From the NCBI GenBank assembly GCA_035693125.1, contig DASSHB010000031.1, positions 29,864-93,863 on the forward strand: a stretch of 64,000 nucleotides of DNA, in the 5' to 3' direction. This document shows, piece by piece, positions 25,711 to 41,936 of this stretch. This DNA comes from Candidatus Limnocylindrales bacterium (lineage in GTDB: Bacteria; Chloroflexota; Limnocylindria; Limnocylindrales; CSP1-4). Position 1 is the stretch's first letter. The number at the start of each line of letters is the position of its first letter. Below the pieces are notes generated by a model. It was not told the origin of the DNA, did no database searches, and was given only the letters and a program-made list of their open reading frames with translations. The position numbers and the translations under genes were made by a program.

Positions 25711-28173
25711 GTGGTGGAGCATGCCCGGGCGGTGATCATCGGCGGCGGCGTCGGCGGGACGTCGGTCGCCTACCACCTCGCCGAGCGCGGCTGGCGGGAC
25801 GTCGTCCTGGTCGACCGCGCGGAGCTGACGTCGGGATCGACATTCCACTCGGCCGGGCTGGTCGGCCAGCTCCGGAGCTCGGTGACCCTGACGACGATGA
25901 TGATGTCCGGGGCGTCGCTCTACCGCCGGCTGAAGGAGCTGACCGGGGTCGATCCGTCGTGGCACGAGGTGGGATCGCTCCGGCTCGCCTCCTCTCCGGC
26001 CCGCTTCGAGGAGCTCCAGCGCCAGGCGAGCTGGGCGAAGACCTTCGGGCTGCCGCTCGAGCTGATCAGCGCGCGCGAGGCACAGGATCGGTTCCCGCTG
26101 ATGTCGACCGAGGGCGTGCTCGGCGCGGTCTGGCTCCCGACCGACGGCTGGCTGGATCCCTCAGGACTCGCGATGGCCCTGGCGGCCGGCGCCCGCCAGA
26201 AGGGCGTCGCGATCCGGACGAACACCCGGGTCGTCGCCGTGGGCGTGGAGCGTGGCCGGGTGACGGGCGTGACGGTCGAGCTCCGGGACGGCTCGCGGGA
26301 GGAGATCCGCGCCGATGTCGTCGTCAACGCGGGCGGGATGTTCGCCCCGGAGATCGGCCGGCTGGCCGGCGTGACGATCCCGATCATCCCGATGGCCCAC
26401 CAGTACCTGTTCACCGAGCCGATGGACGGCGTCCATTCGGGCCTGCCGCAGCTCCGCGACCCGGACAACCTCGTCTACTTCCGGGAGGAGGTCGGCGGCC
26501 TGTGCATGGGCGGCTACGAGCGCGAGCCGGCGCCGTGGTCGCTGGACGGCGTGCCAGCCGATTTCAACGGGAAGCTGCTCGCCCCCGACTGGCCCCGCTT
26601 CGAGCCGATCATGGCCGGCGCGGTCCGGCGGGTCCCGTCGATCGAGGGCGCCGGGGTCTCACGGGTGATCAACGGCCCCGAGGGGTTCACGCCCGACAAC
26701 GAGTTCATCCTGGGCGAGTCGGACGTCCGCGGCTTCTTCGTCGCGGCCGGCTTCTCGGCGCACGGGATCGCGGGCGCCGGCGGCGTGGGCCGCCAGGCCG
26801 CGAGCTGGATCGTGGACGGCGAGCCCGAGCTCGACCTGTGGCACATGGACATCCGCCGCTTCGGCGGGGCGCACTGGCGCTCGCGCGAATGGACGCTCGC
26901 CCGGACGACCGAGGTGTACGCGACCTACTACGACATCCACTACCCGAACGAGGAGCGTCAGGCGGGCCGTCCGCTGCGCGTCTCGCCGACCTACGAGCGG
27001 CTTGCGGCGGCCGGAGCCGTCTTCGGCGAGAAGTCCGGCTGGGAACGGGTGAACTGGTTCGGCCCGAACGCCGACGACGCGCGGTTCGGCGGACGGCCCG
27101 CCCTCGAGGCCCTCCGGCCCCGCGGCTGGGCCGGCCAGCATTGGGATCCGGCCATCGCGGCGGAGTCGCTGGCGACCCGGCGTGATGCAGCCCTCTTCGA
27201 CGAGACGAGCTTTGCCAAGCTCGAGGTCGTCGGGCCGGGGGCCGCCGCGTTCCTCCAGACGATGGCCGCCAACGACATCGACGTCCCGGTCGGCCGGATC
27301 GTCTACTCCTCGCTCCTCAACCGGCGGGGCGGAATCGAGTGCGACCTGACGATCACCCGGATCGCGCCCGACCGGTTCTTCCTCGTCACGGGAACGGCCT
27401 TCGGGCAGCACGATCTCGCCTGGCTGCGGATCCACCTGCCCGACGACGGCTCGGTCCAGCTCAACGACCTGACGTCGGGGCGCGTCTGCTTCGGTCTGTG
27501 GGGCCCGCGAGCCCGAGAGGTCCTCGGGCCGCTCACGACGGACGACCTCTCCAGCGGCGCGTTCCCGTACCTGACCGGCCGGCCGATCACGGTCGGGCGC
27601 GTGCCGGTGCTCGCCCTGCGCGTGACGTACGTCGGCGAGCTGGGCTGGGAGCTCTATGCCCAGAGCGAGTTCGGGCCGGCGCTCTGGGACACGCTCGTCG
27701 AGGCGGGCCGGCCGCACGGCCTCACCCTGGCCGGCTACCGGGCGATCGACGCGCTCCGGCTCGAGAAGGGCTATCGGGTGTGGTCGAGCGACATCACACC
27801 GGACGAGACGCCGTTCGAGGCGGGCCTCGGGTTCGCCGTGGCCCTCGACAAGGGCGTCGACTTCATCGGGCGGGAGGCGCTCATCGCGGCGAAGGCGGCC
27901 GGACCCAGGAAGCGGCTGCGCTGCCTGGTCCTCGACGATCCCCGCTCGATCTGCCTGGGCAACGAGCCGGTCAGGATCGGCGGCGAGATCGTGGGCCGGG
28001 TCACGAGCGGCGGCTATGGCTACGCCGTGGAGCGGTCCATCGCCTATGCCTACCTGCCGCCGGACGCCCCGATCGGGACACGCGGCGAGATCGACGTCTT
28101 CGGCGAATGGATCGGGTTCGAGGCGGTCCGCGAGCCCTTGTGGGATCCAGCGAACGAGCGGATCCGGGCCTGA
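25711..28173 (+). CDS. FAD-dependent oxidoreductase fused to a GcvT aminomethyltransferase domain (dimethylglycine/sarcosine dehydrogenase-like)
   Basis: N-terminal dinucleotide-binding motif VIIGGGVGGTSVAYHLA, a DAO-type domain, and a C-terminal GcvT-like domain (..YRAIDALRLEKGYRVW.., ..TSGGYGYAVERSIAYAY..). TACGCT lies 6 nt upstream of the GTG, so the gene appears leaderless. Confidence 0.9.
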   Translation: MVEHARAVIIGGGVGGTSVAYHLAERGWRDVVLVDRAELTSGSTFHSAGLVGQLRSSVTLTTMMMSGASLYRRLKELTGVDPSWHEVGSLRLASSPARFEELQRQASWAKTFGLPLELISAREAQDRFPLMSTEGVLGAVWLPTDGWLDPSGLAMALAAGARQKGVAIRTNTRVVAVGVERGRVTGVTVELRDGSREEIRADVVVNAGGMFAPEIGRLAGVTIPIIPMAHQYLFTEPMDGVHSGLPQLRDPDNLVYFREEVGGLCMGGYEREPAPWSLDGVPADFNGKLLAPDWPRFEPIMAGAVRRVPSIEGAGVSRVINGPEGFTPDNEFILGESDVRGFFVAAGFSAHGIAGAGGVGRQAASWIVDGEPELDLWHMDIRRFGGAHWRSREWTLARTTEVYATYYDIHYPNEERQAGRPLRVSPTYERLAAAGAVFGEKSGWERVNWFGPNADDARFGGRPALEALRPRGWAGQHWDPAIAAESLATRRDAALFDETSFAKLEVVGPGAAAFLQTMAANDIDVPVGRIVYSSLLNRRGGIECDLTITRIAPDRFFLVTGTAFGQHDLAWLRIHLPDDGSVQLNDLTSGRVCFGLWGPRAREVLGPLTTDDLSSGAFPYLTGRPITVGRVPVLALRVTYVGELGWELYAQSEFGPALWDTLVEAGRPHGLTLAGYRAIDALRLEKGYRVWSSDITPDETPFEAGLGFAVALDKGVDFIGREALIAAKAAGPRKRLRCLVLDDPRSICLGNEPVRIGGEIVGRVTSGGYGYAVERSIAYAYLPPDAPIGTRGEIDVFGEWIGFEAVREPLWDPANERIRA

Positions 28174-29024
28174 TGGAGGACGTCCGCGCCGAGGGTGCCG
28201 CCTGGTCGGCGGGTCGCCGGCGGGCCGATCCGTCCGAGCTCGCCGACTGGCTGGCGTTCTGTCATGAGACCTGCGACGAGGCCGATCGGATCGCCCTGGA
28301 GGCGTTCCGGACCGAGCTGCTCGTGGAGCGCAAGTCCGACGGCTCGTTCGTCACGGCGGCCGATCGTGCGGTCGAACGCGTGATCCGCGACCGGATCGAG
28401 GCCCGCTATCCGGGGCACGGGCTGATCGGGGAGGAGTACGGCGAGTCGGAGGGCGCCGCCCGCGAGCGCTGGTACATCGACCCGATCGACGGCACCCACA
28501 ATTTCCTGCGGGGCCTGCCGGTGTTCGGGACGTTGCTCGCCGTGGAGCGCGACGGCGAGATCCAGGTGGGGATGATGAGCGCGCCGGCGCTCGGCCAGCG
28601 CTGGTACGCCTGGCGCGGCGGCGGGGCGTGGGTCGTGGGCGGACCCGCGAACCCGGCAACGCCGCGCCGGCTGCGCGTCTCGACGGTCGGGGAGCTGGAT
28701 CGGGCGCAGGTCCTCTTCCGCTCGATCCGCGACATGGAGGCCTCCCGGGTGGCGCCGGGCTTCGATCGCCTGATCCACCAGGCCTGGCGCGAGCGGGGGT
28801 TCGGCGACTTCTGGGGCTACACGCTGATCGCGGACGGCGTCGCCGAGGCGGTCCTCGAGCAGGACCTCCACCCATGGGACCTCGCGGCGCCGTGGATCAT
28901 CGTGGAGGAGGCGGGCGGGCGGATCACCGACTTCGACGGGCGGCGCAGCCTGGAGCGAGGGGAGGGGTTCGCGTCGAACGGTCTCCTCCACGACACGGTC
29001 GCGGCGATCCTGCGGGACGGTTGA
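28173..29024 (+). CDS. Inositol-monophosphatase family protein (HisN / histidinol-phosphatase-like)
   Basis: The ATG overlaps the upstream stop (TGATG). Motifs FVTAADRAVE, GEEYG, WYIDPIDGTHNF and HPWDLAAPWIIVEEAGG. Confidence 0.85.
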   Translation: MEDVRAEGAAWSAGRRRADPSELADWLAFCHETCDEADRIALEAFRTELLVERKSDGSFVTAADRAVERVIRDRIEARYPGHGLIGEEYGESEGAARERWYIDPIDGTHNFLRGLPVFGTLLAVERDGEIQVGMMSAPALGQRWYAWRGGGAWVVGGPANPATPRRLRVSTVGELDRAQVLFRSIRDMEASRVAPGFDRLIHQAWRERGFGDFWGYTLIADGVAEAVLEQDLHPWDLAAPWIIVEEAGGRITDFDGRRSLERGEGFASNGLLHDTVAAILRDG

Positions 29025-29147: not shown

Positions 29148-29184
29148 TTGACATGACGACAGACGTCTGACATCTTACGTCTTG
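29148..29184 (+). promoter_or_regulatory. Candidate promoter plus operator of the RLP cluster regulator (leaderless geometry)
   Basis: TTGACA (29148-29153), a 17-nt spacer containing the palindrome CAGACGTCTG, CATCTT, then 7 nt to the GTG at 29184. It contains AGACGTCT (29161-29168) and ATCTTACGTCTTG (29172-29184). Confidence 0.45.
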
Positions 29185-29939
29185 TGGTCACGAGCTCGCG
29201 CGTTCCGAAGGTCCGCACGCCGCGCTTCGTGGAGGTCCGCGGCGAGGTCCTGACCGACCTGACGTCGAGCTATCAGCCGGGAGACCGCTTGCCATCCGAG
29301 CCCGAGCTGGCCTCGGCCTACGGCGTGAGCCGGCCCACCATCCGGGACGTGCTGCGGAGCCTCGAGGGGGACGGCCTGGTCCGGCGCGTCCACGGCGTCG
29401 GGACGTTCGTGACGCAGATCCGGCCGCCGGTGTCCAGCCGGTTCGACCTGGATCTGGGCGTCACCGAGGCGGTCGCCGCCGCCCATCAGCGGCTGGGCGT
29501 CCAGCTCCTCCGCGCCTCCGTGGAGCCCGCGCCGCCCTCGATCGCCGAGCGCCTCGAGCTGGCCGGGTCCGCCGCCGTCCTCTGGGTGGAGCGGGTCATC
29601 CGGGTCAACGACATCCCGGCGGCGCACGCGATCGACGCGATCCCGACCGCGGTGGCCGGATCGGCGAGCTATGACGGCGGCTCGGTCTACCGCTTCCTCG
29701 AGGAATCGTGCGGCCTGGTGCTCGTCGGCGGCCAGGCCGACGTCACCGCGGTGAGCGCGGACCGCTCGCTGGCCCGGCTCCTCGGGACGGCGCCCGGCGC
29801 CCCGCTCCTCCGGATCGATCAGGTCGAGCGCTCGACGACGGATCGACCGGTCCTGTACTCCGCCGAGCACTACGTGCCGACCGTCCTGAACCTCAGCGTT
29901 CGCCGCGTCCGGCACGCCCGGCCCGGCGACGAGCGCTGA
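29184..29939 (+). CDS. GntR-family transcriptional regulator, HutC subfamily (UTRA effector domain)
   Basis: wHTH motif LPSEPELASAYGVSRPTIRDVLRSLEGDGLVRRVHGVGTFV followed by a UTRA-like C-terminal domain. Confidence 0.85.
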   Translation: MVTSSRVPKVRTPRFVEVRGEVLTDLTSSYQPGDRLPSEPELASAYGVSRPTIRDVLRSLEGDGLVRRVHGVGTFVTQIRPPVSSRFDLDLGVTEAVAAAHQRLGVQLLRASVEPAPPSIAERLELAGSAAVLWVERVIRVNDIPAAHAIDAIPTAVAGSASYDGGSVYRFLEESCGLVLVGGQADVTAVSADRSLARLLGTAPGAPLLRIDQVERSTTDRPVLYSAEHYVPTVLNLSVRRVRHARPGDER

Positions 29940-30056
29940 CCCAGCGGTCTCGATGGAGAAGGGAGGCCGGATGCGGGATTCCTAGACCCAACACGGAGGG
30001 TGGGGCGCGCGCCACGGGCCGCGCCGTCAGCGTCGGAAGGGGGAGGAGAGGTCCAC

Positions 30057-31559
30057 ATGTCCCTGTCCCGCGCGTCCGAAGCGGAGCACGATGACGACCG
30101 CGAGCTGCGGTCGTTCGGCTACGAACCGCAGCTGAACCGGTCGATGGGCCTGTTCAGCTCCCTGTCGATCTCGATCTCGTGCATGTGCATCACGGCCGGG
30201 ATCTTCACCGTCTACGCCTACTCGCTCGGCACGGTCGGGCCCGCGTTCATCTGGACGTGGCCGATCGTCGCCCTCGGCCAGATCATCGTCGCCTTGGTCC
30301 TCGCCGATCTGGCGGGACGGATGCCGTTGAGCGGCTATGCCTTCCAGTGGACGAGCCGGCTCGTGAACTCGCATTACGGCTGGTTCACCGGCTGGGCCGG
30401 GCTCATGGCGTTCACCCCCGGCTTCACCGGGTTGAACCTCGGCCTCTCACCGATCCTGCTCAACCGGCTCGGGATCGGGATCGACGCGACCTCGATCATG
30501 GTCACGACGATCTTGCTGACGCTCAGCCAGCTGTTGATCAACCTGGCCGGGGTCAGGATCGCGTCCCGCATCAACAACATCGCCGCGTACACGGCCGAGC
30601 TGGGCCTGTCGGTCGTCCTGACGGTCATCCTGCTCGTCGTCGGCTTCGTGACGAACCCCGTCCAGAGCGTCTCGTTCCTGACGACGTCGAGCGTGACCGA
30701 CGGCGGGTTCCTGACCGCGTTCCTCCTATCCGGCCTGCTCGGGATCTGGGTCCTCACCGGGTTCGAGGGTGCCGCGGACCTCGCCGAGGAGACGCAGGGC
30801 GCCCGACGCAACGTGCCCAAGGCGGTCGTCACCTCGCTGATCCTCGCCGTCGTGATCGGCTTCTTCATGCTGATCGCGCTGACGATCAACATCCGGAACC
30901 TCGGCGAGACGACGGGTGCCGCCGTCCCGATCGCCAATGTCCTGGAGGGCGCCCTCGGATCGACCGGCGCGATCATCTTCGAGGCGGTCGCGATGGTCGC
31001 CCTGTATGCCGGCGGCCTCGCCAACATGGCCGCGTCGTCGCGGCTCATCTTCTCGCTGTCGCGGGATCGGATGCTGCCGCGTTCGCAGGCGCTGGCCTCG
31101 GTGTCGCGGCGGACGGGCTCGCCCTCGGGCGCCCTCCTCCTTGCGGCTGGGCTCTCGATCGCCCTCGTCGTGATCGGCTCGACGATCGCCACCCAGGCGA
31201 TGTCACTGATCGTCGGCATGGCATCGGTCGGCTACTACGCGGTGTACGCCCTGACGATCCTCGGTGCGATCCTGGCCGCGCGGCGCGGCCTCCTGAAGGC
31301 TCGGAGCTCCTTCGATCTGGGTTCGTGGGCCGTGCCGATCCGCTGGATCGCGCTGATCTGGTCGCTGCTCGTGATCGCCGTCCTGACGATCCCGACCGCG
31401 AACCAGCAGACCGCGCTGATGGCGGGTGGGTTCTTCGTGATTGCGATCGTCTGGTACGTGGCGGTGCTTCGGGGCCGTCTCGTTCGAGGCCAGGCCGGGG
31501 TCCCCGACGCCGCCGGCGAGATGCCGGTGGCAGCCATCCCCGCCGAATCGACGATCTGA
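30057..31559 (+). CDS. APC-superfamily amino acid/amine permease
   Basis: ATG at 30057 behind GGGGGAGGAGAGG, with 12 or more hydrophobic segments. It is a paralogue of 21938..23551. Confidence 0.88.
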   Translation: MSLSRASEAEHDDDRELRSFGYEPQLNRSMGLFSSLSISISCMCITAGIFTVYAYSLGTVGPAFIWTWPIVALGQIIVALVLADLAGRMPLSGYAFQWTSRLVNSHYGWFTGWAGLMAFTPGFTGLNLGLSPILLNRLGIGIDATSIMVTTILLTLSQLLINLAGVRIASRINNIAAYTAELGLSVVLTVILLVVGFVTNPVQSVSFLTTSSVTDGGFLTAFLLSGLLGIWVLTGFEGAADLAEETQGARRNVPKAVVTSLILAVVIGFFMLIALTINIRNLGETTGAAVPIANVLEGALGSTGAIIFEAVAMVALYAGGLANMAASSRLIFSLSRDRMLPRSQALASVSRRTGSPSGALLLAAGLSIALVVIGSTIATQAMSLIVGMASVGYYAVYALTILGAILAARRGLLKARSSFDLGSWAVPIRWIALIWSLLVIAVLTIPTANQQTALMAGGFFVIAIVWYVAVLRGRLVRGQAGVPDAAGEMPVAAIPAESTI

Positions 31560-31653
31560 CCCCTTCGGCGGCGCGGGCCCTTTGTGGTCCGCGCCGCTCT
31601 CACCGCACCGATCCGGGTCCGCGTCCGCGGCCCGCCCCGCTCCGAGGAGACCG

Positions 31654-32832
31654 ATGAGCCCGACCGCGATCGAGGACTACCTGCGACCCGGCATCGCCTC
31701 GGCGTCGCCGTACGACGCCCGACACCACGACTTCGCCTGGCGCCACCGCGAGCTCGACCGGCTGATGTCGAACGAATGCCCGTTGCCGCCGTCCCCGACC
31801 GTGATCGCCGCCGCGACGGCCGCCCTCCAGATCGCGAACTTCTACCCGAACTCGGGCGAGGACCTCCGGGCCGCGGTTGCCCGCTTCAATGGTGTCGACG
31901 CCGCAAGCGTGATCCTCGGCAACGGCTCGACTGAGGTGCTCGATGTCGTGACCCGCGCGTTCGTCGGCCCGGGCGACGAGGTCGTGATCTCCGTCCCGAC
32001 GTACGCCTTCTTCGAGTCCCAGACACGGCTCTACGGCGGAGAGCCGCTGCTGATCCCGATGACGGACGACTTCCGGTTCGACGTGCCCGCGATCCTCGAC
32101 GCCGTCACCGGGCGGACGAAGGCGATCTTCCTGTGCAGCCCGAACAACCCGACGGGCAACAGCTGGACCGCGCAAGAGCTCGAGGCGGTCCTCGGGGCCG
32201 GCGTCCCGACGGTCGTCGATCAGGCCTACCTGGAGTGCGGCTGGGCGCCGTCGTTCGCCCCGCTCGTGGCGCGCCACCCGAACCTGATCGTGACCCGGAC
32301 GATGTCGAAGGCGTTCGGACTGGCGGCCCTCCGGCTCGGTTACGGGATCGCCGCGCCCACCCTCGTCGACGCCTTCCTCCGGCTGCGGATCCCGTTCAGC
32401 CTGAGCCTCGTGGCGCTCCGGGCCGGGCTCGCGGCGATGGACCACCCCGAAGAGCTCGAGGAGCGCCGCGCCTTCATCTCCACCGAGCGCGATCGGGTGT
32501 TCGCCGCCCTGGATCAGATGCCGGGGGTGCGACCGTTCCCGTCCGCGGGCAACTTCATCCTGATCGACGTCTCGGCGACCGGCCGGACGAGCGGCGAGAT
32601 CGTCGAGTTCGCCCGGCGCGAGAACATGCTCCTGCGGGCGATGACGGCACACCGCCTGAAGGACGCGTTCGTCCGGGTCACGATCGGCACCGTCGACCAG
32701 AACGATCGGTTCGTCGACGTCTTCACCCGGGCGATCGCGGGCGGCCCCCAGGTGCCTGCCCCGGCCGACACGGGCGGAGCGATGACCCGCCTCGTGGCTC
32801 GCGACCGTGCGGACGCACCGCTCGGCGCATGA
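31654..32832 (+). CDS. Class I/II (HisC-family) pyridoxal-phosphate aminotransferase
   Basis: ATG at 31654 behind GAGGAGA. Motifs NECPLPPSP, YPNSGEDLR, CSPNNPTG, and the PLP-lysine motif TRTMSKAFGLAALRLGY. It is histidinol-phosphate-aminotransferase-like. Confidence 0.85.
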   Translation: MSPTAIEDYLRPGIASASPYDARHHDFAWRHRELDRLMSNECPLPPSPTVIAAATAALQIANFYPNSGEDLRAAVARFNGVDAASVILGNGSTEVLDVVTRAFVGPGDEVVISVPTYAFFESQTRLYGGEPLLIPMTDDFRFDVPAILDAVTGRTKAIFLCSPNNPTGNSWTAQELEAVLGAGVPTVVDQAYLECGWAPSFAPLVARHPNLIVTRTMSKAFGLAALRLGYGIAAPTLVDAFLRLRIPFSLSLVALRAGLAAMDHPEELEERRAFISTERDRVFAALDQMPGVRPFPSAGNFILIDVSATGRTSGEIVEFARRENMLLRAMTAHRLKDAFVRVTIGTVDQNDRFVDVFTRAIAGGPQVPAPADTGGAMTRLVARDRADAPLGA

Positions 32833-34385
32833 CCGTTCTCGCCTGGGACATCGGGACGAGCGGTGTCAAGGCCGTGGTCGTCGATCGGTCGGGCCGCATC
32901 CTGGCCGCCGCCCGGCGGAGCTACGGCCTCGTCACGCGCGCGGACGGTTGGGTGGAGCAGGATCTCGACGCGATCGAGGCGGCGATCGGCGAGGCGACCC
33001 GCGAGCTGCTGACGGACCCGCTCTGCCGGGCTGGCGACGTCGAGGCGATCGGGCTGACCGCGCAGATGTTCGATCTCGCTGCGGTCGACGCCGACGGCCG
33101 CCAGACGATCCCGATGCTCAGCTGGCTCGACCAGCGGGCGGTCGGGGAAGCCGAGGCACTGGCCGCGGTCGTCGATCGCCGGCGACAGGCGCAGCTCTTC
33201 GGCTCGATCGTCACCGCGAAGGACGTGATCCCGAAGATCGCCTGGCTCCGCGACCAGCGGCCGGACGCCTGGCGACGGACGCGCTGGCTGCTCGACTGCA
33301 AGGAGGCCATCGTCCTCCGCCTCACCGGGCGGGCGGTGATCGATCCCGCCGGGGCGCTCGCGTTCCGCCTGGCCGATCCGCTCTCGGCATCGTGGTCCGC
33401 CGCTGCCTGCGCGGCCGCCGGGGTACCCCTCGAGCGCCTTCCGGCGATCGAGCCGGCGAGCACGGTCGCCGGAACCCTCCTGCCCGAGGTCGCGGCCCGG
33501 CTGGGCCTGGGTGCCGCGGTCCCCGTGGTGGTCGGGGCCGGGGATGTCCCCGCCAGCCAGCTCGGCGCAGGCGCGACGGATCCCGGCGACGCCCACGTCA
33601 GCCTGGGAACCGCGGTCTATTTCGGGATCACGGTCGACCGGCCCCTCGCCGACCCGGCGGGCCAGCTGGGCGTGATCGGCCACGCCGACCCGCGCCTGTT
33701 CATCCTGTGGCTGGAGGTGGCGACCGGCGGTGGCGCCCTGTCGTGGCTGCTCCGGGCGCTCGGCGACGGCGCGGAGCCCGACGCGGCCGCCCTGGCCGGG
33801 CTGGACCGGGAGGTGGCCGGGGTCGCCGCCGAGATGGACGATCTCGTCTTCGCCCCGTGGCTCAGTGGCGAACGCGTTCCGGTCTTCGACGACCGGATCC
33901 GGGGCGCCTTCGTCGGACTGGGGCTCCGTCATGGGCGCGGCCACCTCCTCCGAGCGCTGATGGAGGGCGTCGCCTACCAGATGCGCTGGGCCCTCGACTA
34001 CGGCGAGCGCTTCGGCCCGGCGGTCGGCGAGGTGCGCGGCGTCGGCGGTGGGTTCATCGGAACGAGCTGGACCCAGATCATCGCCGATGTGCTCGACCGG
34101 CCGATCCTGTCGATCCGCCATCCGCAGGACGCAGCCGCTGTCGGGGCGGCCGCCTGCGCCCTCGTCGCCATCGGGGCCCAGTCCGACCTGCGCTTCGTGC
34201 GCGAGATCGCCGAGGTCGAACGGACGCACCGGCCGGATCCTGCGAATCGCGCGCGTCTCGATGCGGGATACGCCCGCTTCCGGCAGCTGTACGAGGCCCT
34301 CGCCCCGCTGTTCTCGGGCGAGCCCGCCCGGGACACGCCGGCCGTGGCTGTTCCGCCGGCGCTCGAATCGGCGGCGGCGCCGTGA
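32829..34385 (+). CDS. FGGY-family carbohydrate kinase (xylulokinase-like)
   Basis: MTVLAWDIGTSGVKAVVVD, GAGDVPASQLGAGA and VGGGFIGTSWTQIIADVLDRPI. It has an ATGA overlap with the aminotransferase stop. Confidence 0.88.
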   Translation: MTVLAWDIGTSGVKAVVVDRSGRILAAARRSYGLVTRADGWVEQDLDAIEAAIGEATRELLTDPLCRAGDVEAIGLTAQMFDLAAVDADGRQTIPMLSWLDQRAVGEAEALAAVVDRRRQAQLFGSIVTAKDVIPKIAWLRDQRPDAWRRTRWLLDCKEAIVLRLTGRAVIDPAGALAFRLADPLSASWSAAACAAAGVPLERLPAIEPASTVAGTLLPEVAARLGLGAAVPVVVGAGDVPASQLGAGATDPGDAHVSLGTAVYFGITVDRPLADPAGQLGVIGHADPRLFILWLEVATGGGALSWLLRALGDGAEPDAAALAGLDREVAGVAAEMDDLVFAPWLSGERVPVFDDRIRGAFVGLGLRHGRGHLLRALMEGVAYQMRWALDYGERFGPAVGEVRGVGGGFIGTSWTQIIADVLDRPILSIRHPQDAAAVGAAACALVAIGAQSDLRFVREIAEVERTHRPDPANRARLDAGYARFRQLYEALAPLFSGEPARDTPAVAVPPALESAAAP

Positions 34386-35641
34386 CCGGGGCGTCCGCCG
34401 TCAGCCAGACGCTCCATGCGTCGCCACCGGGCGCGGAGCCGCGCGAGGACGTCGTGGTGACCTACCTGGCGGGCCTTCCGAGCGAGGAGTCCGCCGCGCG
34501 CACCGCGGCCGACGCGTTCGCGCTCGGGCAGAGCCTCGGAACGTGGAAGCCCGTGCCGGGCATCACCGACGCCATGCGCCGCGACCACGGCGCACGCGTC
34601 GTGGAGCTCCGCAGGACGGATCGCGACGAGGTGGTCGGCGGCGTCCGGACCGACGGGCGGTGGGTGCTGTCGGTCGCGTTCCCGGTGATCAATCTCGGGT
34701 CGTCCCTGGCGATGCTCCTGACGACGGCGATCGGGAACGACCCCTCCACGTCGATCGCGATGCGCGTCGTCGGAATCGACGTCCCCGCGCGGTACGTCGA
34801 GCTGTTCCCCGGCCCGCGCTTCGGCGTCGAGGGCTGGCGGCGGGTGACCGGCGTCGCGGCCCGGCCGCTGCTGCTGAACATGATCAAGCCGTGCACCGGG
34901 TTCCCGCCCGAGGTGGGCGCCGGGTTCGCGGCCGAGAGCGCTCGGGGCGAGGTGGACCTGATCAAGGACGACGAGCTCCTGGCCGACCCGTCGTTCTCGC
35001 GGGTCGCCGACCGGACGAGGGCGTACGTGGCCGCGATCGATGCGGTCGCCGCCGAGACCGGCCGCGCAACTCGCTACGTCGCGCACGTCACGACGACGCC
35101 AGCGCGTCTCGCCCCCACGGCGCGGGCCGCGGTCGATGCCGGAGCCGGTGCCGTGATGGTCACGCCGCTCACGCTCGGGCTCGATGCGCTCGCCGAGCTC
35201 GCGGCGACGGCCGGCGTGCCGATCCTCGCCCATGTCGCGGGGATCGAGATGTGGACCGGCGCCGCCGAGGGCGGGATCGGCCACGGGGCGCTCGCGCGCC
35301 TCCTCCGACTCGCCGGCGCGGACGCCGTCCTCACGAGCACGCCCCATGCGCCGCGGCCACTCTCGGATGCCGCCTACGCGGCGGTCGCCGCCGGGTTGCG
35401 CGACGAGGTCGCCGGGGGCCGCGTGCGCGCCGCGCTGCCGATGCCCGGCGGCGGGATCACGGCCGATCACGTCGCGCCGATCGTCGCAGCGCTCGGGACG
35501 GACGTGATCATCGCCGTCGGAGGGGCGATCCAGGGCCATCCCGACGGAGCGGCGGCGGGCGGCCGCGCCGTCCGTGCCGCGATCGACGCGGCCGTCGCGC
35601 GCCGGCCGGCGCTCGCGGGGACCGGGGAGGACCGAGCGTGA
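34382..35641 (+). CDS. RuBisCO large-subunit-like protein (form IV RLP)
   Basis: GTGA overlap with the kinase stop. Motifs LLLNMIKPCTG, VDLIKDDELL, PILAHVAG, LLRLAGADAV, LPMPGGGI and VGGAIQGHPDG align by eye with the RuBisCO IKPK, KDDE, HRAMH, SGGIH and GGGTLGHPWG regions. There is no small-subunit or PRK gene in the window. Confidence 0.85.
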   Translation: MTGASAVSQTLHASPPGAEPREDVVVTYLAGLPSEESAARTAADAFALGQSLGTWKPVPGITDAMRRDHGARVVELRRTDRDEVVGGVRTDGRWVLSVAFPVINLGSSLAMLLTTAIGNDPSTSIAMRVVGIDVPARYVELFPGPRFGVEGWRRVTGVAARPLLLNMIKPCTGFPPEVGAGFAAESARGEVDLIKDDELLADPSFSRVADRTRAYVAAIDAVAAETGRATRYVAHVTTTPARLAPTARAAVDAGAGAVMVTPLTLGLDALAELAATAGVPILAHVAGIEMWTGAAEGGIGHGALARLLRLAGADAVLTSTPHAPRPLSDAAYAAVAAGLRDEVAGGRVRAALPMPGGGITADHVAPIVAALGTDVIIAVGGAIQGHPDGAAAGGRAVRAAIDAAVARRPALAGTGEDRA

Positions 35642-36426
35642 CGCCGCCGCTCATCGGCACGAGCTGGAAGATGAACCTGACGCCGAGCGAGGCGGCCCGC
35701 TGGTTCGCGGTCGCGCGGCCGCTCCTCGAGCCGCTCGCCGCGACCCGCGACCTGTTCGTCCTGCCGCCGTTCCCGGCGATCTTCGTCGCACGTGATGCGC
35801 TGGCCGGCAGCGCGATCGGGTGGGGCGGGCAGGACCTCCACGCCGACGACGGTGGCGCCCACACCGGCGACGTGTCCGGGGCGATGCTGGCCGACCTCGG
35901 GTCCCGCTACGTCGAGATGGGCCACTCCGAGCGGCGACGCGACCACGGGGAGACCGACGCGGAGGTCGCGGGCAAGGTCCGCGCGGCGTTCCGCTGGAAC
36001 CTCACCCCGATCGTGTGCGTCGGCGAGCGGATCCAGGGTCCGCTCGCGCCGGCTTGGCGGATCGTCGAGGGCCAGCTCGCCGGCGCGTTCGACGGCCTCG
36101 TGCCCGCGGACCTCGACCGCGTCGTCGTCGCGTACGAGCCGGTCTGGGCGATCGGCGAGGGCTCGGTCGCCGCGGACCCGGACCACGTCGCCGGAATCCA
36201 CGACGCGATCGACGCCTGGCTCGCCGCGCGGGGCGCGACGGCCCGGCGCGTCCTGTACGGCGGCAGCGTCGACGAGACGACCGCGGCCGCCCTGCTCGCC
36301 GTCTCGCACGTCGCCGGGCTGTTCGTCGGCCGAGCGGCCCTCGATCCAAATCGGTTCTCCGCGATCGCCGCGACGCCGATCCCGGCCACTCGCACCGGGT
36401 CCACGGTCACCGAGAGGAGCGCCTGA
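35638..36426 (+). CDS. Triosephosphate-isomerase-family protein (TpiA2/EryH-like)
   Basis: GTGA overlap with the RLP stop and GGAGGA upstream. Motifs GTSWKMN, EMGHSERR, AYEPVWAIGEG and LYGGSV. Confidence 0.85.
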   Translation: MTPPLIGTSWKMNLTPSEAARWFAVARPLLEPLAATRDLFVLPPFPAIFVARDALAGSAIGWGGQDLHADDGGAHTGDVSGAMLADLGSRYVEMGHSERRRDHGETDAEVAGKVRAAFRWNLTPIVCVGERIQGPLAPAWRIVEGQLAGAFDGLVPADLDRVVVAYEPVWAIGEGSVAADPDHVAGIHDAIDAWLAARGATARRVLYGGSVDETTAAALLAVSHVAGLFVGRAALDPNRFSAIAATPIPATRTGSTVTERSA

Positions 36427-36927
36427 ATGCCCACCGACACCCCGATCCTGCTCGGCGCCGACGACGCCGGCCTCGGCCTGCTCGAGATCATCGCCGACGA
36501 CCTGCGGACGCTCGGCCGGGCGGTCGAGACCTACCGCCCCGATGATCCGCTCCCGGACGACGCGACGACGCCGGCCGACGAGGTCGACTACCCCGACGTC
36601 GCCGAACGCGTCGCGAACGCGATCCGGAGCGGTCGATCGGACCGCGGGATCCTGATCTGCGGAACGGGGATCGGGATGGCGATCGCCGCCAACAAGGTGC
36701 CCGGCGTCCGGGCCGCCCAGGCCCACGACGTCTATTCCGCCGAGCGCGCGCGCAAGAGCAACGATGCCCAGATCCTCACCCTGGGCGCACGGGTCATCGG
36801 CCCCGAATCCGCCAAGACGGTCGTCCATGCCTGGCTCGAGTCCGAGTTCGCCGGCGGCGCGTCGACGCGGAAGGTCGCGAAGCTCGAGCGGTTGGACGAG
36901 CGGCGCTCGGCGGCGGAGCCGCGATAG
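36427..36927 (+). CDS. rpiB: RpiB/LacA/LacB-family sugar-phosphate isomerase (EryI-like context)
   Basis: The ATG directly follows the upstream TGA. Catalytic-Cys motif ILICGTGIGMAIAANK, plus SNDAQILTLGARVIG and WLESEFAGG. Confidence 0.8.
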   Translation: MPTDTPILLGADDAGLGLLEIIADDLRTLGRAVETYRPDDPLPDDATTPADEVDYPDVAERVANAIRSGRSDRGILICGTGIGMAIAANKVPGVRAAQAHDVYSAERARKSNDAQILTLGARVIGPESAKTVVHAWLESEFAGGASTRKVAKLERLDERRSAAEPR

Positions 36928-36933: not shown

Positions 36934-37725
36934 CTACGCGGACTCCGCGGACCGGGGCGCGGGTGGCCGGTCCCAGAGCGGTTCGGTCGTCTGCGGCGGC
37001 CAGACCTCGGGACCGCAGATGAACGCCCGAGGGCGCGGAGCCGGCACCTGGGAGTCGAGGAGCGCGACGACGACCGGCCGGATGTCGTCGAACGTCGACC
37101 ACTCGAGATACGGCCAGCCGCGGTCGGCGCAGATCGCGGCCAGGTGGTCCTTGGCGAAGACGAGGTCGGCGTGAGCGGCCGCGTACAGGTCGCTGAACCC
37201 GTCGCCGACGAACACGGTGTAGTCGCCGGCCGCCTGGTGGACGAGGATTCGCTGGCGTTTGCAGGTGCCGCACACGCGGCAGGCCGGGTGTCCGTCCGGG
37301 AAGTCGATCGCGACGCGTCCGGGCGGGAACGTCGTCCGCGCCGCGAACACCGGGAGGTCTCCGAGACCCAGCCGCGCCAGGGACGGCCCGACGAAGAAGC
37401 CGAACCCGTCGCTGACGACTTCGACGACCGCGCCCCGGCCGCGGAGCTCGTCGACGAAGGGGCGGAACGCCGGGTCGAGGTCCTCGCCCTCGGTCATCGT
37501 CGCGATCCGCTCCGTGGCGCCGTGGAGCAGCGCCGCCTGGCGGGTGAGGAGGGTCCGCGAGCCGATCGCTCCCTCGAGATATGCGGCTTCGAGCGGCGCC
37601 CAGGCGTCGAGGTCGGCGTAGCGCCGCATGACCTCGTCGGAGAGGTCCAGGCGAGCGATCGTCCCGTCGAAGTCGACGAGCACGACCAGCCTGGCCGCCC
37701 GGTCGACCGCCCCCGGACCGGTCAC
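36934..37725 (-). CDS. HAD-IB phosphatase, MtnX-like (2-hydroxy-3-keto-5-methylthiopentenyl-1-phosphate phosphatase family)
   Basis: VLVDFDGTI, VVSDGFGFF, the Cys cluster HPACRVCGTCK, and FVGDGFSDLYAAAHADLVFAKD. This layout is shared with Bacillus MtnX as I recall it. Confidence 0.7.
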   Translation of the reverse strand: MTGPGAVDRAARLVVLVDFDGTIARLDLSDEVMRRYADLDAWAPLEAAYLEGAIGSRTLLTRQAALLHGATERIATMTEGEDLDPAFRPFVDELRGRGAVVEVVSDGFGFFVGPSLARLGLGDLPVFAARTTFPPGRVAIDFPDGHPACRVCGTCKRQRILVHQAAGDYTVFVGDGFSDLYAAAHADLVFAKDHLAAICADRGWPYLEWSTFDDIRPVVVALLDSQVPAPRPRAFICGPEVWPPQTTEPLWDRPPAPRSAESA

Positions 37726-38534
37726 GAGCGGGGCGATGCCGGCGCGGCGCCCGCGGGCTGGCTTCGGCCCAGCCCTTCGAGCAGGAGCGGGACGTCGTCA
37801 CCGATGATCCCGTCGCAGCCCAGCTGCACGCTGCGCCGGATCGACTCGAGCGTATCGATCGGCCACGACCAGACCGCGGTTCCGGCGTCGTGGAGCGCCG
37901 CGACCACCTCCGGCGTCAGGTCCTCCCAGCGGTGCTGGAGGACGGCCGCGTCGAGGGCGACGGCCTGGCCGGTGGCGATCGAGGGATCCGAGCGGCCGGC
38001 CTCGGGCAGGCGCTCCGGCGCGAACAACGGGCTCCCCACCTCGGCCCGCGCCGCGGCGAGCGCCGCGTGGTCGAACGACGAGATGAACACCTGGTCGAGA
38101 AGGTCGCGATCGCGGAGGAGCCGGGCGACGGCGACGGCGGTGGCGGGTGCGTCCTCGGCGCTGCCTTTGATCTCGACGCACAGCAGCAGGCCCGCGCCGA
38201 CGATCAGCTCGATCGTGTCCTCGAGTGACGGGATCCGGGAGCCACGGAACCGCTCACCCCGCCAGCTGCCCGCATCCAGCGTCCGGACGCGATCCCAGTC
38301 GAGCTCCGCGATCGGCCCATGGCCGTCCGTCGTCCGGTCGACCGTCAGGTCGTGGAGCATGGCCAGCCGCCCGTCGCGGGTTCGCTGGACGTCCGTCTCG
38401 ATGCCCTCCGCGCCGAGCCGGATCGCCTCCTCGTAGGCCTCGAGCGTCTGCTCCGGGAAGGTGGCGCGCTGGCCGCGGTGAGCGATCGCGAGGGGCGTCG
38501 CCCGCCGAAACGGGTTGTCGACGCGACGGCTCAT
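37722..38534 (-). CDS. Glycerophosphodiester phosphodiesterase (GDPD) family protein
   Basis: Start MSRRVDNP at 38534. Motifs LAIAHRG, PEQTLEAYEEAIRLGAEGIETDVQRTRDG and HDLTVDRTT. NTGA overlaps occur at both ends. Confidence 0.85.
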   Translation of the reverse strand: MSRRVDNPFRRATPLAIAHRGQRATFPEQTLEAYEEAIRLGAEGIETDVQRTRDGRLAMLHDLTVDRTTDGHGPIAELDWDRVRTLDAGSWRGERFRGSRIPSLEDTIELIVGAGLLLCVEIKGSAEDAPATAVAVARLLRDRDLLDQVFISSFDHAALAAARAEVGSPLFAPERLPEAGRSDPSIATGQAVALDAAVLQHRWEDLTPEVVAALHDAGTAVWSWPIDTLESIRRSVQLGCDGIIGDDVPLLLEGLGRSQPAGAAPASPRS

Positions 38535-39637
38535 CCCGGGGCGTCGGCGGGCGCCGCGGGATCGGAGCCGAAGGGGATCAGCCGTCCCCCGCCCGGCTCG
38601 AAGCCGAGCGTGACCGGATCGTCGAGGTCGAGCCGGACCTCGGCGGTCGCCTCGCCCGGAACGTCGGCGAGGAGCAGCTCGTCCCCGACCCGGATCGTGA
38701 ACCGGGTCACGGCGCCCAGGAACGTCCGCTCGGCGATGCGCCCCGGCCAGCCGCCGGGATCGGCGCCGTCGGCGGCCGGGCTCACCCGGATCCGCTCGGG
38801 CCGGACGACCATGACGGCGCTGCTGCCGGCCGCGAACCGGCTGTCGGGGGCGACGCGAACCGTCCGGCCCTGCCACTCGACCTGGGATCCATCGCCGCCC
38901 GTGACCCGGACCGGCAGCCGGTTCGAGGTGCCCACGAACCGGGCGACGTACTCGTTCGCGGGGGCCGTGTAGATCTCCTCCGGCGTCCCGAGCTGCTCGA
39001 CCCGGCCGTCGCGCATCACCGCGACCCGGTCGGAGATCGAGAGGGCCTCCTCCTGGTCGTGGGTGATGTACATCGTGGCGATGCCGAGGCTCCGCTGGAT
39101 CCGCCGGATCTCGAGCCGGAGCGTCAGCCGGACGGCGGCGTCGAGCGCCGACAGCGGCTCGTCGAGGAGGAGGACCGGCGGCTCGATCGCGAGGGCGCGC
39201 GCGAGGGCCACCCGCTGCTGCTGGCCGCCGGACAGCTGATGGGGATAGCGGCCGGCGGCGTCGCCGATCTGGATGAGCTCCACGAGCTCGGCCACCTTGC
39301 GCTTGACGTCCGCCCGGGAGCGCTTGCGAACCGCGAGGCCGTAGCCGATGTTCTCGGCCGCGGTCATGTTCGGGAAGAGCGCGTACGACTGGAACACGAC
39401 GCCCATGCCCCGCTGGTTGGCGGGCTCGTGGGTCACGTCGCGGCCTTCGAGGAAGATCCGGCCGCGGTCGGCGGCCACGAGGCCGGCCACCATCCGCAGC
39501 GTCGTCGTCTTGCCGCAGCCGCTCGGGCCCACGAGGGATACGAGCTCGCCGCGGTCGATCACCAGATCAAGGCTGTCGACGGCGACGACACGACCGAACG
39601 TCTTGCGCAGCTGCTGGAGCTCGAGCTGGGTCACCAT
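38531..39637 (-). CDS. ABC importer ATP-binding protein (PotA/MalK-like)
   Basis: Walker A GPSGCGKTT, signature LSGGQQQR, Walker B LLLDEPLSALD, and a C-terminal TOBE-like regulatory domain. Confidence 0.9.
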   Translation of the reverse strand: MVTQLELQQLRKTFGRVVAVDSLDLVIDRGELVSLVGPSGCGKTTTLRMVAGLVAADRGRIFLEGRDVTHEPANQRGMGVVFQSYALFPNMTAAENIGYGLAVRKRSRADVKRKVAELVELIQIGDAAGRYPHQLSGGQQQRVALARALAIEPPVLLLDEPLSALDAAVRLTLRLEIRRIQRSLGIATMYITHDQEEALSISDRVAVMRDGRVEQLGTPEEIYTAPANEYVARFVGTSNRLPVRVTGGDGSQVEWQGRTVRVAPDSRFAAGSSAVMVVRPERIRVSPAADGADPGGWPGRIAERTFLGAVTRFTIRVGDELLLADVPGEATAEVRLDLDDPVTLGFEPGGGRLIPFGSDPAAPADAPG

Positions 39638-39706
39638 CGCGTCCCCTCTGGTCGGCGGCGGATTGGCCTGCGCTGGCTTGACATGGAGTGTAGCGTGGTC
39701 GAGGTC

Positions 39707-39740
39707 AGACGTTATACCTCATACGTCTTCCCGTCTAGAC
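39707..39740. promoter_or_regulatory. Candidate HutC-type operator cluster in a divergent intergenic region
   Basis: AGACGT (39707-39712), a 10-nt spacer, ACGTCT within CTCATACGTCTTC (39718-39730), and the perfect palindrome GTCTAGAC (39733-39740). The last is the core of DasR-like HutC operators. Confidence 0.45.
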
Positions 39741-39767
39741 CGCGTTTGGCAGAGGGACCAGCCGACC

Positions 39768-40556
39768 GTGACGTTGATCGGCCAGGCGAAGCTCGCCTCC
39801 AGGGTGCGCGAAGAGGTCCGCGACCGGATCCGCGACGGCCGGTTCTCGGACGGCGTCCAGCTGCCCCCCGAGGTCGAGCTCGCGACGTCCCTCGGCGTCA
39901 GCCGGACGACGGTCCGCGAGGCGCTCCTCCAGCTGGAGCAGGAAGGCCTGCTCATCCGGCGCCACGGCCACGGGACGTTCGTCCGCTCCGCGGCCCGCCT
40001 GCGCGGCAGCCTCAACGCGAACCTGAGCGCCACGGAGGTGATCCGCGGCCACGGGATGGAGCCCGGGACGAGCCACGCCCGGATCGAGGAGGTCGCGCTC
40101 GATGACGACGCCGCCGCGAGCCTCGGGCTGGCCCCGGGCGCAGCGGCGGTCCGCCTCGAACGGGTCCGGACGGCCGACGGGCGGCCGGTGATCTTCACGG
40201 TGGACGTCATCCCCGCCAGCCTCTTCCGGTCGAGCGGCGTCCCGCTCCAGAGCCTCCTCGATTCCGGCCTGTCGCTGTATCGCCTGTATGCCGATCGCCT
40301 CGGCCGGTCGATCACGGACGGTCAGGCGTCGATCCGGCTCACTCGCGCGGACGCCCTGGTGGCCGACCGCCTCGGGATCCCCGCCGGGAGCCCGATCCTG
40401 CGCCTCGAACAGGTCGACGCGACGGCGGAGGGCGAGCCCGTCCTCTTCTCGGTGGAGTCGTACGTCGCCGACACGTTCGAGTTCAGCGTCCATCGTCGAG
40501 GGCCGGCTCTCGAGGCCCTCCCGACTCGGGCCCGGCCGGCCCGACCGAGCGGATGA
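39768..40556 (+). CDS. GntR-family transcriptional regulator, HutC subfamily
   Basis: GTG at 39768 with GAGGGA about 10 nt upstream. LPPEVELATSLGVSRTTVREALLQLEQEGLLIRRHGHGTFV plus a UTRA-like domain. Confidence 0.85.
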   Translation: MTLIGQAKLASRVREEVRDRIRDGRFSDGVQLPPEVELATSLGVSRTTVREALLQLEQEGLLIRRHGHGTFVRSAARLRGSLNANLSATEVIRGHGMEPGTSHARIEEVALDDDAAASLGLAPGAAAVRLERVRTADGRPVIFTVDVIPASLFRSSGVPLQSLLDSGLSLYRLYADRLGRSITDGQASIRLTRADALVADRLGIPAGSPILRLEQVDATAEGEPVLFSVESYVADTFEFSVHRRGPALEALPTRARPARPSG

Positions 40557-40689
40557 GGCGCCGTGCCCGACGCGGACCGTGAACGGGTCGCCGCGGCCCG
40601 GAACCCCATCTGACCGGTCGCGGGCCGGAGGGCCCTCGACCACCAACCGACCATCGCGCAACCGGGATCGAATCTGTGGAGGAGGACGA

Positions 40690-41826
40690 ATGCATCGACG
40701 ACGCTCAGCGATCGGCTCGATCGGGCTGACCTTGATCCTCGTGGCCGCCTGCGGCAGCACGGCTTCGCCGTCGCCGTCGAGCAGCGGCGCCGGCGCGAGT
40801 GCCGGAACGGGATCGAGCGGCCCGGACGCCTCGGCCGTCATCGCGGACCTCGTGACGAAGGCGAAGGCCGAAGGCGCGCTGAACAGCTACGGCATGCCGC
40901 CCGACTGGACGAACTTCGGCGCGATCTGGGACAAGTTCCTGCCGACCTACGGCCTGACCCACACCGACACCGACATGTCGAGCGCGGAGGAGATCCAGAA
41001 GTTCGACGCCGAGAAGAACAACCCGGTCTCCGACCAGGGCGACATCGGGATCCAGTTCGGCCCGGTCGCCGTGTCGTCCGGCACGGTCCAGCCGTACAAG
41101 CCGACCCGCTGGGACCTGATCCCCGACTACGCCAAGGACCCCGACGGCAACTGGATGTGCTGGTACACCGGCACGATCTCCTTCGCCGTGAACACGGCGC
41201 TCGTGCCGAACGTGCCCAAGAGCTGGGCCGATCTGCTCAAGCCCGAGTACAAGGGCACCGTCGCGATCAGCGACCCGCGGAACGCCGCACAGGGCTCGAT
41301 GACGGTCCTCGCCGCGGCCCTGGCCAACGGCGGCTCCGAGACGAACATCGACCCGGGCCTGAAGTACTTCGATGACCTCAACAAGGCCGGCAACCTGACG
41401 TCGGTCGCCCCGAGCAAGGCCAACATCGAGAAGGGCGAGGCGAAGATCTCGATCCTGTGGGACTACAACGCCCTGCCGGTTCGCGACGACCTCGCCGCGG
41501 CCAGCCCGGCGGTGCCGATCGAGGTCGTGATCCCGAGCGACGGGACGACCCAGGCCCCCTACTGCCACATCATCAACAAGTACGCCGCGCATCCCAACGC
41601 GGCCAAGCTGTTCCGGGAGTACATCCTGACCGACGAGGCGCAGGTGCTCCAGGCGCAGAAGTACGCCCGACCGTTGGTCAAGGGCGTCCAGATCCCCGCC
41701 GACCTGGCCTCGAAGTTCCCGGCCGAGTCGCAGTACGCTGCGGTCAAGCCGATCCAGGACTGGAAGGCCGCGGCCGACGCGATCGCCCGGCTGGCGACCG
41801 AGTGGACCATCGAGGTCGGAGCCTGA
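40690..41826 (+). CDS. ABC transporter substrate-binding lipoprotein (PotD / family-1 SBP-like)
   Basis: ATG behind GGAGGAGGA. Signal peptide with a lipobox (LILVAACGS), then a Ser/Gly linker and a periplasmic binding fold. Confidence 0.85.
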   Translation: MHRRRSAIGSIGLTLILVAACGSTASPSPSSSGAGASAGTGSSGPDASAVIADLVTKAKAEGALNSYGMPPDWTNFGAIWDKFLPTYGLTHTDTDMSSAEEIQKFDAEKNNPVSDQGDIGIQFGPVAVSSGTVQPYKPTRWDLIPDYAKDPDGNWMCWYTGTISFAVNTALVPNVPKSWADLLKPEYKGTVAISDPRNAAQGSMTVLAAALANGGSETNIDPGLKYFDDLNKAGNLTSVAPSKANIEKGEAKISILWDYNALPVRDDLAAASPAVPIEVVIPSDGTTQAPYCHIINKYAAHPNAAKLFREYILTDEAQVLQAQKYARPLVKGVQIPADLASKFPAESQYAAVKPIQDWKAAADAIARLATEWTIEVGA

Positions 41827-41936
41827 CGTCGTCCTCCTCCTCAAGCGGGATCCGCGTCCCCGCCGCCCATCGGGCGGCGGGGACGTCCCGCACCGAGGAC
41901 GAGGCCGGACGCCAACAGCTGAGGTGAGCCGCTGAC

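Follow-up and report, generated by a model that had tools for sequence, protein, structure and literature searches.

A HisC-family aminotransferase encoded with a sugar kinase and a RuBisCO-like protein in Limnocylindrales: a candidate route for amino-alditol catabolism

The closest described relatives of the aminotransferase (AT) considered here are the histidinol-phosphate aminotransferases (HisC/HspAT), such as Rv1600 of Mycobacterium tuberculosis (Mtb; 4R8D), the E. coli enzyme (1FG3) and plant HISN6 (8BJ1), with which it shares the fold and the pyridoxal phosphate (PLP) motif; its identity to HISN6 is ∼40%. The AT gene lies in a 64-kb stretch of DNA (the window) on contig C31 of a 2.67-Mb metagenome-assembled genome (MAG) of a Candidatus Limnocylindrales bacterium, with a completeness of 79%. 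The lid Tyr of HisC is still present, as are its Asn and both Arg residues that hold the phosphate, and the chemistry proposed for the AT would be the HisC reaction. It differs in that it is not a his-operon copy, belongs to a separate clade, and has Thr for Asn/Asp and Phe-Phe for Met-Tyr in the pocket; its gene is instead found directly 5′ of the genes for a sugar kinase and a RuBisCO-like protein (RLP).

A second group of related systems comprises the erythritol route of Brucella/Rhizobium and the mycobacterial tetritol route (LerK, LerI, DerI). There, as here, a kinase and paralogues of triosephosphate isomerase (TIM) and RpiB are encoded in one operon, and the expected end product is erythrose-4-phosphate, as we propose for the window. 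The erythritol layout consists of the EryA kinase, the EryB dehydrogenase, the EryC epimerase, EryH and EryI (PMC11508834); another nomenclature uses D-Eu1P 3-epimerase, LerI and DerI (PMC10733421). The window differs by having an AT for EryB, an RLP for EryC and a GntR/HutC-type regulator, and operons of its type include an APC permease for uptake or no uptake gene at all. Two further systems were compared. Cj1437 of Campylobacter jejuni, which transaminates dihydroxyacetone phosphate (DHAP) to (S)-serinol-phosphate, is a precedent for PLP-dependent transamination of a sugar 2-keto-1-phosphate (PMC11800397); it differs in being biosynthetic (capsule decoration) and in its C3 substrate, and the likeness drawn here is one of reaction. 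Bacillus methionine salvage (MtnW/MtnX/MtnE) also includes an aminotransferase and provides the best-scoring models for the RLP (MtnW) and for a convergently encoded HAD protein (MtnX), but both score under the cut-offs, the operon encodes no MtnB or MtnK, and that pathway has no role for TIM and RpiB paralogues.

In a literature search, no published description of an AT-kinase-RLP operon was found. The AT most likely takes an amino-sugar-alcohol phosphate to a keto-sugar phosphate, in what would be a so far undescribed catabolic route. In its specific form, in which a HisC-family paralogue was recruited into a GntR-repressed catabolic operon leading from an amino-alditol to erythrose-4-phosphate, we put this forward tentatively, with a confidence somewhat short of even.

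The operon and its aminotransferase

The window has a G+C content of 70-76%, and its closest public records are Candidatus Limnocylindrales/Chloroflexota MAGs. Genes were placed by GC3 (G+C at third codon positions) frame analysis together with Pfam and NCBIfam profile scans. We observed gene identities, couplings, conservation, distribution, residue patterns and contexts. The operon is one co-directional string of seven genes:

29184-29939, forward strand: GntR/HutC-type regulator, first gene of the operon (Pfam GntR 1.5e-18, UTRA 1e-25)
30057-31559, forward strand: APC-superfamily permease, 500 aa (AA_permease_2, E 2.8e-45)
31654-32832, forward strand: HisC-family AT, 392 aa (Aminotran_1_2, E 2.5e-53)
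32829-34385, forward strand: FGGY-family kinase, XylB-like (FGGY_N 1e-42, FGGY_C 8.5e-26)
34382-35641, forward strand: RLP, form IV (RuBisCO_large 3.1e-31)
35638-36426, forward strand: TIM paralogue in an EryH/LerI-like position (TIM 1.3e-63)
36427-36927, forward strand: RpiB/LacAB-family isomerase paralogue in an EryI/DerI-like position (LacAB_rpiB 7.5e-46)

From the AT through RpiB, neighbouring genes overlap (ATGA, ATGA, GTGA-type) or abut. The AT starts at ATG 31654, preceded by GAGGAG, and its stop codon (TGA, 32830-32832) shares an ATGA with the start codon of the kinase (ATG, 32829-32831). The original prediction, made from the DNA letters, had placed an APC permease and a HisC-family AT ahead of the kinase, with the AT stop overlapping the kinase start and a PLP motif in the AT. 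Pfam and GC3 confirm both genes, the ATGA is found at 32829-32832, and the motif TRTMSKAFGLAALRLGY is located at residues 214-230.

Related loci were collected from RLP relatives, from contigs found via AT homologues and from a genome search, and were mapped with the window proteins. Including the window, 17 complete loci carry an AT of the same clade (identity 63-89%), and in 17/17 the AT is the gene directly 5′ of the FGGY kinase. Among 150 other sampled genomes of the order the AT was found in four, from four genera, and the RLP adjoins it in three of these; the operon is accessory and patchy. One record labelled ‘Patescibacteria group bacterium’ (L011, DATNFQ010000100.1) carries a cluster near-identical to those of the Limnocylindrales MAGs L012 and L013, and is probably mis-binned or mislabelled.

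With 286.7 bits on the NCBIfam hisC model TIGR01141 (287.6 in the genome search), the AT surpasses the equivalog cut-off of 276.55. The PLP Lys219, in TRTMSKAFGLAALR, fits the S-K-x-x-G-L-A-x-L-R motif of a class I/II fold, and by sequence the AT is classed as a HisC-family, class I/II, subfamily I-beta paralogue. All public copies are auto-named histidinol-phosphate aminotransferase, a name that is probably wrong for this protein. A second HisC homologue of the genome, 33% identical to the window AT, is encoded on contig C25, where hisB/IGPD is the next gene downstream, and hence the window AT is not the housekeeping hisC; on the hisC model the window AT scores 287.6 bits versus 224.5 for the hisB-linked copy.

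In Mtb HspAT, the imidazole and amine groups are bound by the lid residue Tyr25 together with Asn103 and Tyr127; Met129 and Tyr261* contribute to the pocket lining, and the phosphate of histidinol-phosphate is held by Arg337, Arg346 and Asn176. The aromatic paralogue carries Val86, Phe110, Leu112 and Phe246*, and there the corresponding Arg fixes the carboxylate (PMC4703992). We mapped the AT residues through a HMMER alignment to 4R2N and a 42-sequence alignment. Kept in the AT and its whole clade are Y20 (equated with the lid Tyr25 of Mtb by sequence alignment alone), N165 (the Asn of PNNPTG), the C-terminal R328 and R341, and Tyr117. Clade-wide changes are Thr93 at the Asn103/Val86 position, Phe119 at the Met129 position, Phe120 where all other aligned sequences have Tyr, Asn to Cys42 (NENP to NECP) and Glu to Gln190 (DEAY to DQAY). 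At the changed pocket positions, Asp/Asn and Met/Val/Leu-Tyr occur in the bona fide HisCs that were aligned, the copy of this genome among them. The AT thus retains the phosphate anchor of HisC and lacks its hydrophilic imidazole pocket. A kept anionic anchor with a remodelled side-chain pocket would fit a phospho-substrate other than histidinol-phosphate; a carboxylate is also possible.

In a maximum-likelihood tree (support values given as pairs), the ATs of the window type form a monophyletic clade (clade A, 100/99) that is sister (90/91) to a second clade (clade B, 100/100), whose 14/14 loci are triads of class-II aldolase, AT and HAD phosphatase. These clades group (95/93) with an archaeal AT that lies in a class-III AT-AT-FGGY-RLP string (L062) and with an AT flanked by phosphotransferase system (PTS) genes, apart from the HisCs of the phylum (99/92), which were called bona fide by motifs, tree position and the genome's own hisB-linked copy. 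Clade A therefore falls with sugar-context ATs, and every lineage of the group adjoins enzymes that make or handle sugar phosphates. The triads (L108-L121, e.g. L112:556-3433) come from two Chloroflexota families and consist of an FBP-type aldolase, a HisC-like AT with ‘GNGSSE’ and the phosphatase, often followed by a NUDIX gene. They look like biosynthesis of a 2-amino-alditol from a DHAP-derived ketose-1-phosphate, and might supply, in nature, the substrate proposed below. The PTS-flanked AT (‘GNGSME’), from another Chloroflexota genome (L135:2-3058), is encoded between EIIA_2 and EIIC-GAT genes.

Partner enzymes and the proposed route

The kinase scores 286.8 bits on the XylB model (cut-off 380), and its best PDB match is the E. 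coli xylulokinase 2itm. The RLP is the only one of the genome. It scores 229 bits on the MtnW model (cut-off 409), its closest structures are MtnW-type, and the position of the catalytic Lys98 of MtnW is occupied by Asn in an alignment to 2oek; on the OiaX model it reaches 164 bits against a cut-off of 700. The top NCBIfam match of the RpiB paralogue is the D-erythrulose-4-phosphate isomerase model (163.9 bits, cut-off 240). A second RpiB is encoded on contig C92 of this genome, and in cluster-bearing relatives another TIM gene lies outside the cluster, so that the operon copies are paralogues.

Neighbour clustering over 80 RLP loci revealed Actinomycetota RLPs that are 43-47% identical to the window RLP (e.g. 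L018, L024, L034, L049, L078, L079). Their loci encode a sugar ABC transporter, a GlpD-like flavoprotein (which scores under the GlpD cut-off), a DeoR regulator, TIM and RpiB paralogues and an FGGY kinase. In this comparison the Actinomycetota loci match EryA, EryB, EryD, EryH and EryI, with an RLP in place of EryC; we found no publication on such loci. The window operon has the TIM and RpiB paralogues, and neither the EryB dehydrogenase nor the EryC epimerase. By analogy, the window AT would fill the logical place of EryB, that is, of the GlpD-like dehydrogenase of the Actinomycetota relatives.

A variant of the operon was found in genome G550 (L146, G550:C15:2375000-2392000; 8796-11667), where the string is FGGY2-IMPase-GntR-AT-FGGY-HAD-IA sugar phosphatase-single-chain Dak1/Dak2 kinase-RpiB, with open reading frames that overlap their neighbours and without RLP or TIM. 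The swap implies that RLP plus TIM can be exchanged for phosphate removal and re-addition. A phosphatase and a DAK kinase would bring about the same net change, from ketose-1-phosphate to ketose-4-phosphate, as an epimerase and a LerI-type isomerase. DerK belongs to the DAK family. A DerK kinase yielding D-erythrulose-4-phosphate is documented (PMC13753588). In our view, no other single clue points as strongly as this swap to a small ketose, phosphorylated beside the carbonyl, as the joint product of the kinase and the AT.

FGGY-RLP pairs also occur in Anaerolineae and in several archaeal lineages, with no TIM or RpiB nearby. They are preceded by a class-III aminotransferase in L047, L058, L061, L074, L075 and L084, and by a saccharopine-dehydrogenase-like (Sacchrp_dh) gene in L050, L052, L064, L072, L076 and L085. 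These loci are another recurrent link of RLPs to amine-handling enzymes.

The AT clade and pocket, its sugar-phosphate relatives, the erythritol-type loci and the G550 variant together favour an amino-alditol route, of which we infer every reaction, the order of kinase and AT, the C4 length and the catabolic direction. A small 2-amino-2-deoxy-alditol, most likely the four-carbon 2-aminobutane-1,3,4-triol (‘amino-tetritol’), would be imported by the APC permease where present, and otherwise perhaps by an adjacent ABC importer. The FGGY kinase would phosphorylate the primary hydroxyl beside the amino carbon. The AT, as an amino-alditol-1-phosphate : 2-oxoglutarate transaminase, would then convert R-CH(NH2)-CH2-OP to R-CO-CH2-OP, as HisC does with histidinol-phosphate, giving erythrulose-1-phosphate. 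It would in this way substitute for EryB, deaminating the C-NH2 beside CH2OP instead of oxidising the C-OH beside CH2OP. Erythrulose-1-phosphate would be taken on by the RLP, which like EryC is probably a 3-epimerase, and by the TIM (EryH/LerI-like) and RpiB (EryI/DerI-like) paralogues, which together would shift the carbonyl; the resulting erythrose-4-phosphate would enter the pentose-phosphate pathway.

This refines an idea of the original prediction, in which an amino-polyol is imported, phosphorylated, transaminated to a 2-keto-1-phosphate and handed to the RLP. A distinct AT tied to the kinase and RLP genes, with the anchor kept and the pocket altered, agrees with that idea in part, but the permease proves to be optional. 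The product class also gains from the comparison, as the erythritol-type loci and the phosphatase plus DAK variant point to erythrulose-1-phosphate, and the phosphatase gene that had been cited along with the pathway gives no support (see below).

Several points weigh against the amino-alditol route. We know of no natural 2-amino-tetritol, nor of an FGGY kinase that acts on an amino-alcohol, and the window kinase is 29-35% identical to the FGGY kinases of erythritol-like and archaeal loci. The AT passes the hisC equivalog cut-off. The G550 variant comes from a single genome, the permease is encoded in a minority of the loci, and the RLP is without an assigned reaction. The whole chemistry is drawn from genes and their comparison, which here do not fix the chain length as C3, C4 or C5. 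In same-subfamily aromatic aminotransferases the Arg pair binds a carboxylate (PMC4703992), so that the residues are no proof of a phospho-substrate.

A wider proposal, which we regard as speculative and less likely than not, is that 2-amino-2-deoxy-tetritols are a hitherto overlooked class of natural metabolites that soil and freshwater Limnocylindrales catabolise, with a HisC paralogue replacing the polyol-phosphate dehydrogenase and with an RLP as 3-epimerase of a ketose-1-phosphate, a type of reaction for which no RLP has been reported. Other Chloroflexota may make such amino-alditols via the aldolase-AT-phosphatase triad. If true, the HisC aminotransferase family would gain a new substrate class, the unassigned RLP clade a first physiological handle, and an abundant soil lineage would be using small amino-alditols as genuine nutrients from its environment. 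The natural swaps (dehydrogenase for AT; RLP plus TIM for phosphatase plus DAK kinase) make the proposal directly testable.

Alternative functions of the operon

The alternative that survives best, although we judge it unlikely, reverses the first two steps: the AT would deaminate a free amino-alditol or amino sugar to a ketose such as erythrulose, the XylB-like kinase would phosphorylate it, and RLP, TIM and RpiB would finish the route. The kinase is nearest to xylulokinases, which use free ketoses, LerK-type erythrulose kinases feed LerI/DerI (PMC10733421, PMC13753588), and the AT gene comes first and the kinase gene second. However, the anionic anchor of the HisC subfamily (Arg pair, Asn and lid Tyr; PMC4703992) is kept in full, and the sister clades put the AT past a phosphorylated step (aldolase-AT-phosphatase; PTS-AT). 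Furthermore, the G550 phosphatase, acting after the kinase and the AT, is sensible only if what these two enzymes yield together carries its phosphate at the ‘wrong’ end.

We hold it improbable that the substrate of the AT is a polyhydroxy alpha-amino acid (e.g. 4-hydroxythreonine or a 2-amino-2-deoxy-aldonate) brought in by the APC permease, with the kinase phosphorylating the 2-oxo acid and the RLP isomerising and decarboxylating it, like OiaC/OiaX, to a triose or tetrulose phosphate for TIM/RpiB. Amino acids are a common cargo of APC permeases, the Arg pair binds carboxylates too in this subfamily (PMC4703992), RLPs that decarboxylate 3-oxo-isoapionate-4-phosphate exist (model NF042437), and an OiaC-LerK-EryH-EryI set is documented (PMC13753588). 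Yet the RLP falls far under the OiaX cut-off and is nearer to the MtnW type, and its closest relatives are encoded with GlpD-like polyol-phosphate dehydrogenases and no acid-sugar genes. The phosphatase plus DAK variant is unsuited to an acid intermediate, and the permease is optional.

More improbable still is a biosynthetic operon, in which the AT would aminate a keto-1-phosphate derived from erythrose-4-phosphate or a ketose phosphate and a HisN-like phosphatase (IMPase) would release the amino-alditol. Such a phosphatase adjoins every locus, and the aldolase-AT-HAD triad of the sister clade looks biosynthetic, but a built-in kinase and sometimes a permease under a HutC-type repressor form a catabolic layout, and the distribution is patchy and accessory. 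The phosphatase gene belongs to a pair just upstream of the operon:

25711-28173, forward strand: DMGDH-like gene
28173-29024, forward strand: IMPase/HisN-like phosphatase (Inositol_P, E 7e-49)

The IMPase gene named in the original prediction is real, and its protein reaches 248.6 bits on the HisN model (cut-off 275), being the best HisN-like gene product of the genome. The pair is conserved and coupled (TGATG overlap in the window). IMPase orthologues are single-copy in 55/60 family genomes, and five cluster-bearing genomes have no other close HisN-like gene. In five family genomes (L138-L142) the IMPase gene follows the DMGDH-like gene with no GntR match within 1.5 kb on each side. Being a core gene, present once per genome and tied to the DMGDH-like gene, it is no evidence for the pathway, and its use as a pathway clue in the original prediction finds no support. 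Judging by sequence, it is probably a core gene for histidinol-phosphatase beside which accessory modules were inserted. The modules around it vary: some genomes have a polyol module on its upstream side, and the RLP operon lies on its downstream side.

An ordinary, redundant histidinol-phosphate or aromatic aminotransferase lying by chance beside sugar genes, as the TIGR01141 score and all public names would have it, or an MtnE-like last step of a methionine-salvage variant, as the MtnW and MtnX models would suggest, is equally improbable, given the AT-kinase adjacency in 17/17 loci, its presence in just 4/150 other genomes, the clade-specific pocket on a branch apart from bona fide HisCs, and, for methionine salvage, which we rejected, the Asn at Lys98 of MtnW, the failure to find ARD/MtnD in this 79%-complete genome and the location of an MtnA-like gene on another contig, unlinked to the operon.

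Regulation, uptake and neighbouring genes

Two non-coding elements were located in the operon region:

29148-29176, forward strand: promoter-like element with palindrome, probable GntR operator (sequence reading)
31567-31598, forward strand: G+C-rich hairpin, 13 bp (fold of 31550-31660)

Upstream of the GntR gene, TTGACA-17 nt-CATCTT is overlapped by the palindrome AGACGTCTGACATCT (29161-29175), which is present once in the 64-kb window, and the GTG start codon lies 7 nt past the −10-like hexamer. The block GTCTGACATCTTA, with the start codon 7 nt on, is kept in L006, L007, L008, L010 and L144, and L017 carries a related palindrome. The palindrome is the probable GntR operator. Because the start codon is just 7 nt past the hexamer, the arrangement suggests a leaderless, autoregulated mRNA starting at GntR. 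In the window, no site resembling the GntR promoter or palindrome was found ahead of the permease or the AT. With a single promoter/operator ahead of GntR, co-expression of permease, AT and RLP would be the simplest reading. A consensus promoter/terminator scan of the window did not flag the GntR promoter and gave nothing useful, and a search for a GTCTAGAC-type operator gave nothing near the operon, where the conserved palindrome is AGACGTCTGACATCT. In every related locus the gene for this regulator, which has a GntR helix-turn-helix and a UTRA domain, precedes the AT gene; the protein reached no NCBIfam equivalog cut-off.

The permease ATG (30057) is preceded by a strong ribosome-binding site, GGAGGAGAGG, and the gene stops at 31559. 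AA_permease_2 spans residues 50-472 of the longer open reading frame translation (30000-31559), i.e., a whole-length APC domain. The permease fits no substrate-defined subfamily, the best NCBIfam models being all far under cut-off: 193.7 bits for TIGR03428 (urea-carboxylase-associated permease; cut-off 740), 166.1 for TIGR00907 (2.A.3.4, amino acid/choline-type; cut-off 598) and 58.5 for the ethanolamine permease model (cut-off 382). These matches are compatible with a small amine or amino-alcohol substrate, and with nothing more specific.

The permease is encoded in 7/17 complete loci (the window, L006, L007, L008, L010, L144 and L151), and the orthologues of L006, L007, L008 and L010 show 81-89% identity. 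In the remaining ten, the GntR gene runs up to or into the AT start (e.g. L149, L150), and for this reason the permease looks like an insertion, an accessory uptake gene; its standing as a pathway component in the original prediction is weakened. Loci lacking the permease have, upstream, genes for SDRs, for a sugar ABC transporter and for another FGGY kinase, so that the RLP-TIM-RpiB core may serve both polyol and amino-polyol entry. The permease-AT spacer of the window (94 nt) holds the 13-bp G+C hairpin, without a T-run. The scan called no terminator-like site in this spacer, and the whole-segment z-score of the fold (−1.34) is not significant; the hairpin is a possible RNA stabiliser or partial terminator.

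Downstream, genes for an MtnX-like HAD protein, a GDPD and an ABC ATPase lie on the opposite strand, convergent with the operon. A PotABCD-like ABC importer is always convergent with the RLP operon (36934-43654 in the window; L144, L151, L013, L015), and may be the uptake route in loci without the permease. It is accompanied by the GDPD and the MtnX-like HAD in some genomes, and by a class-III aminotransferase in others.

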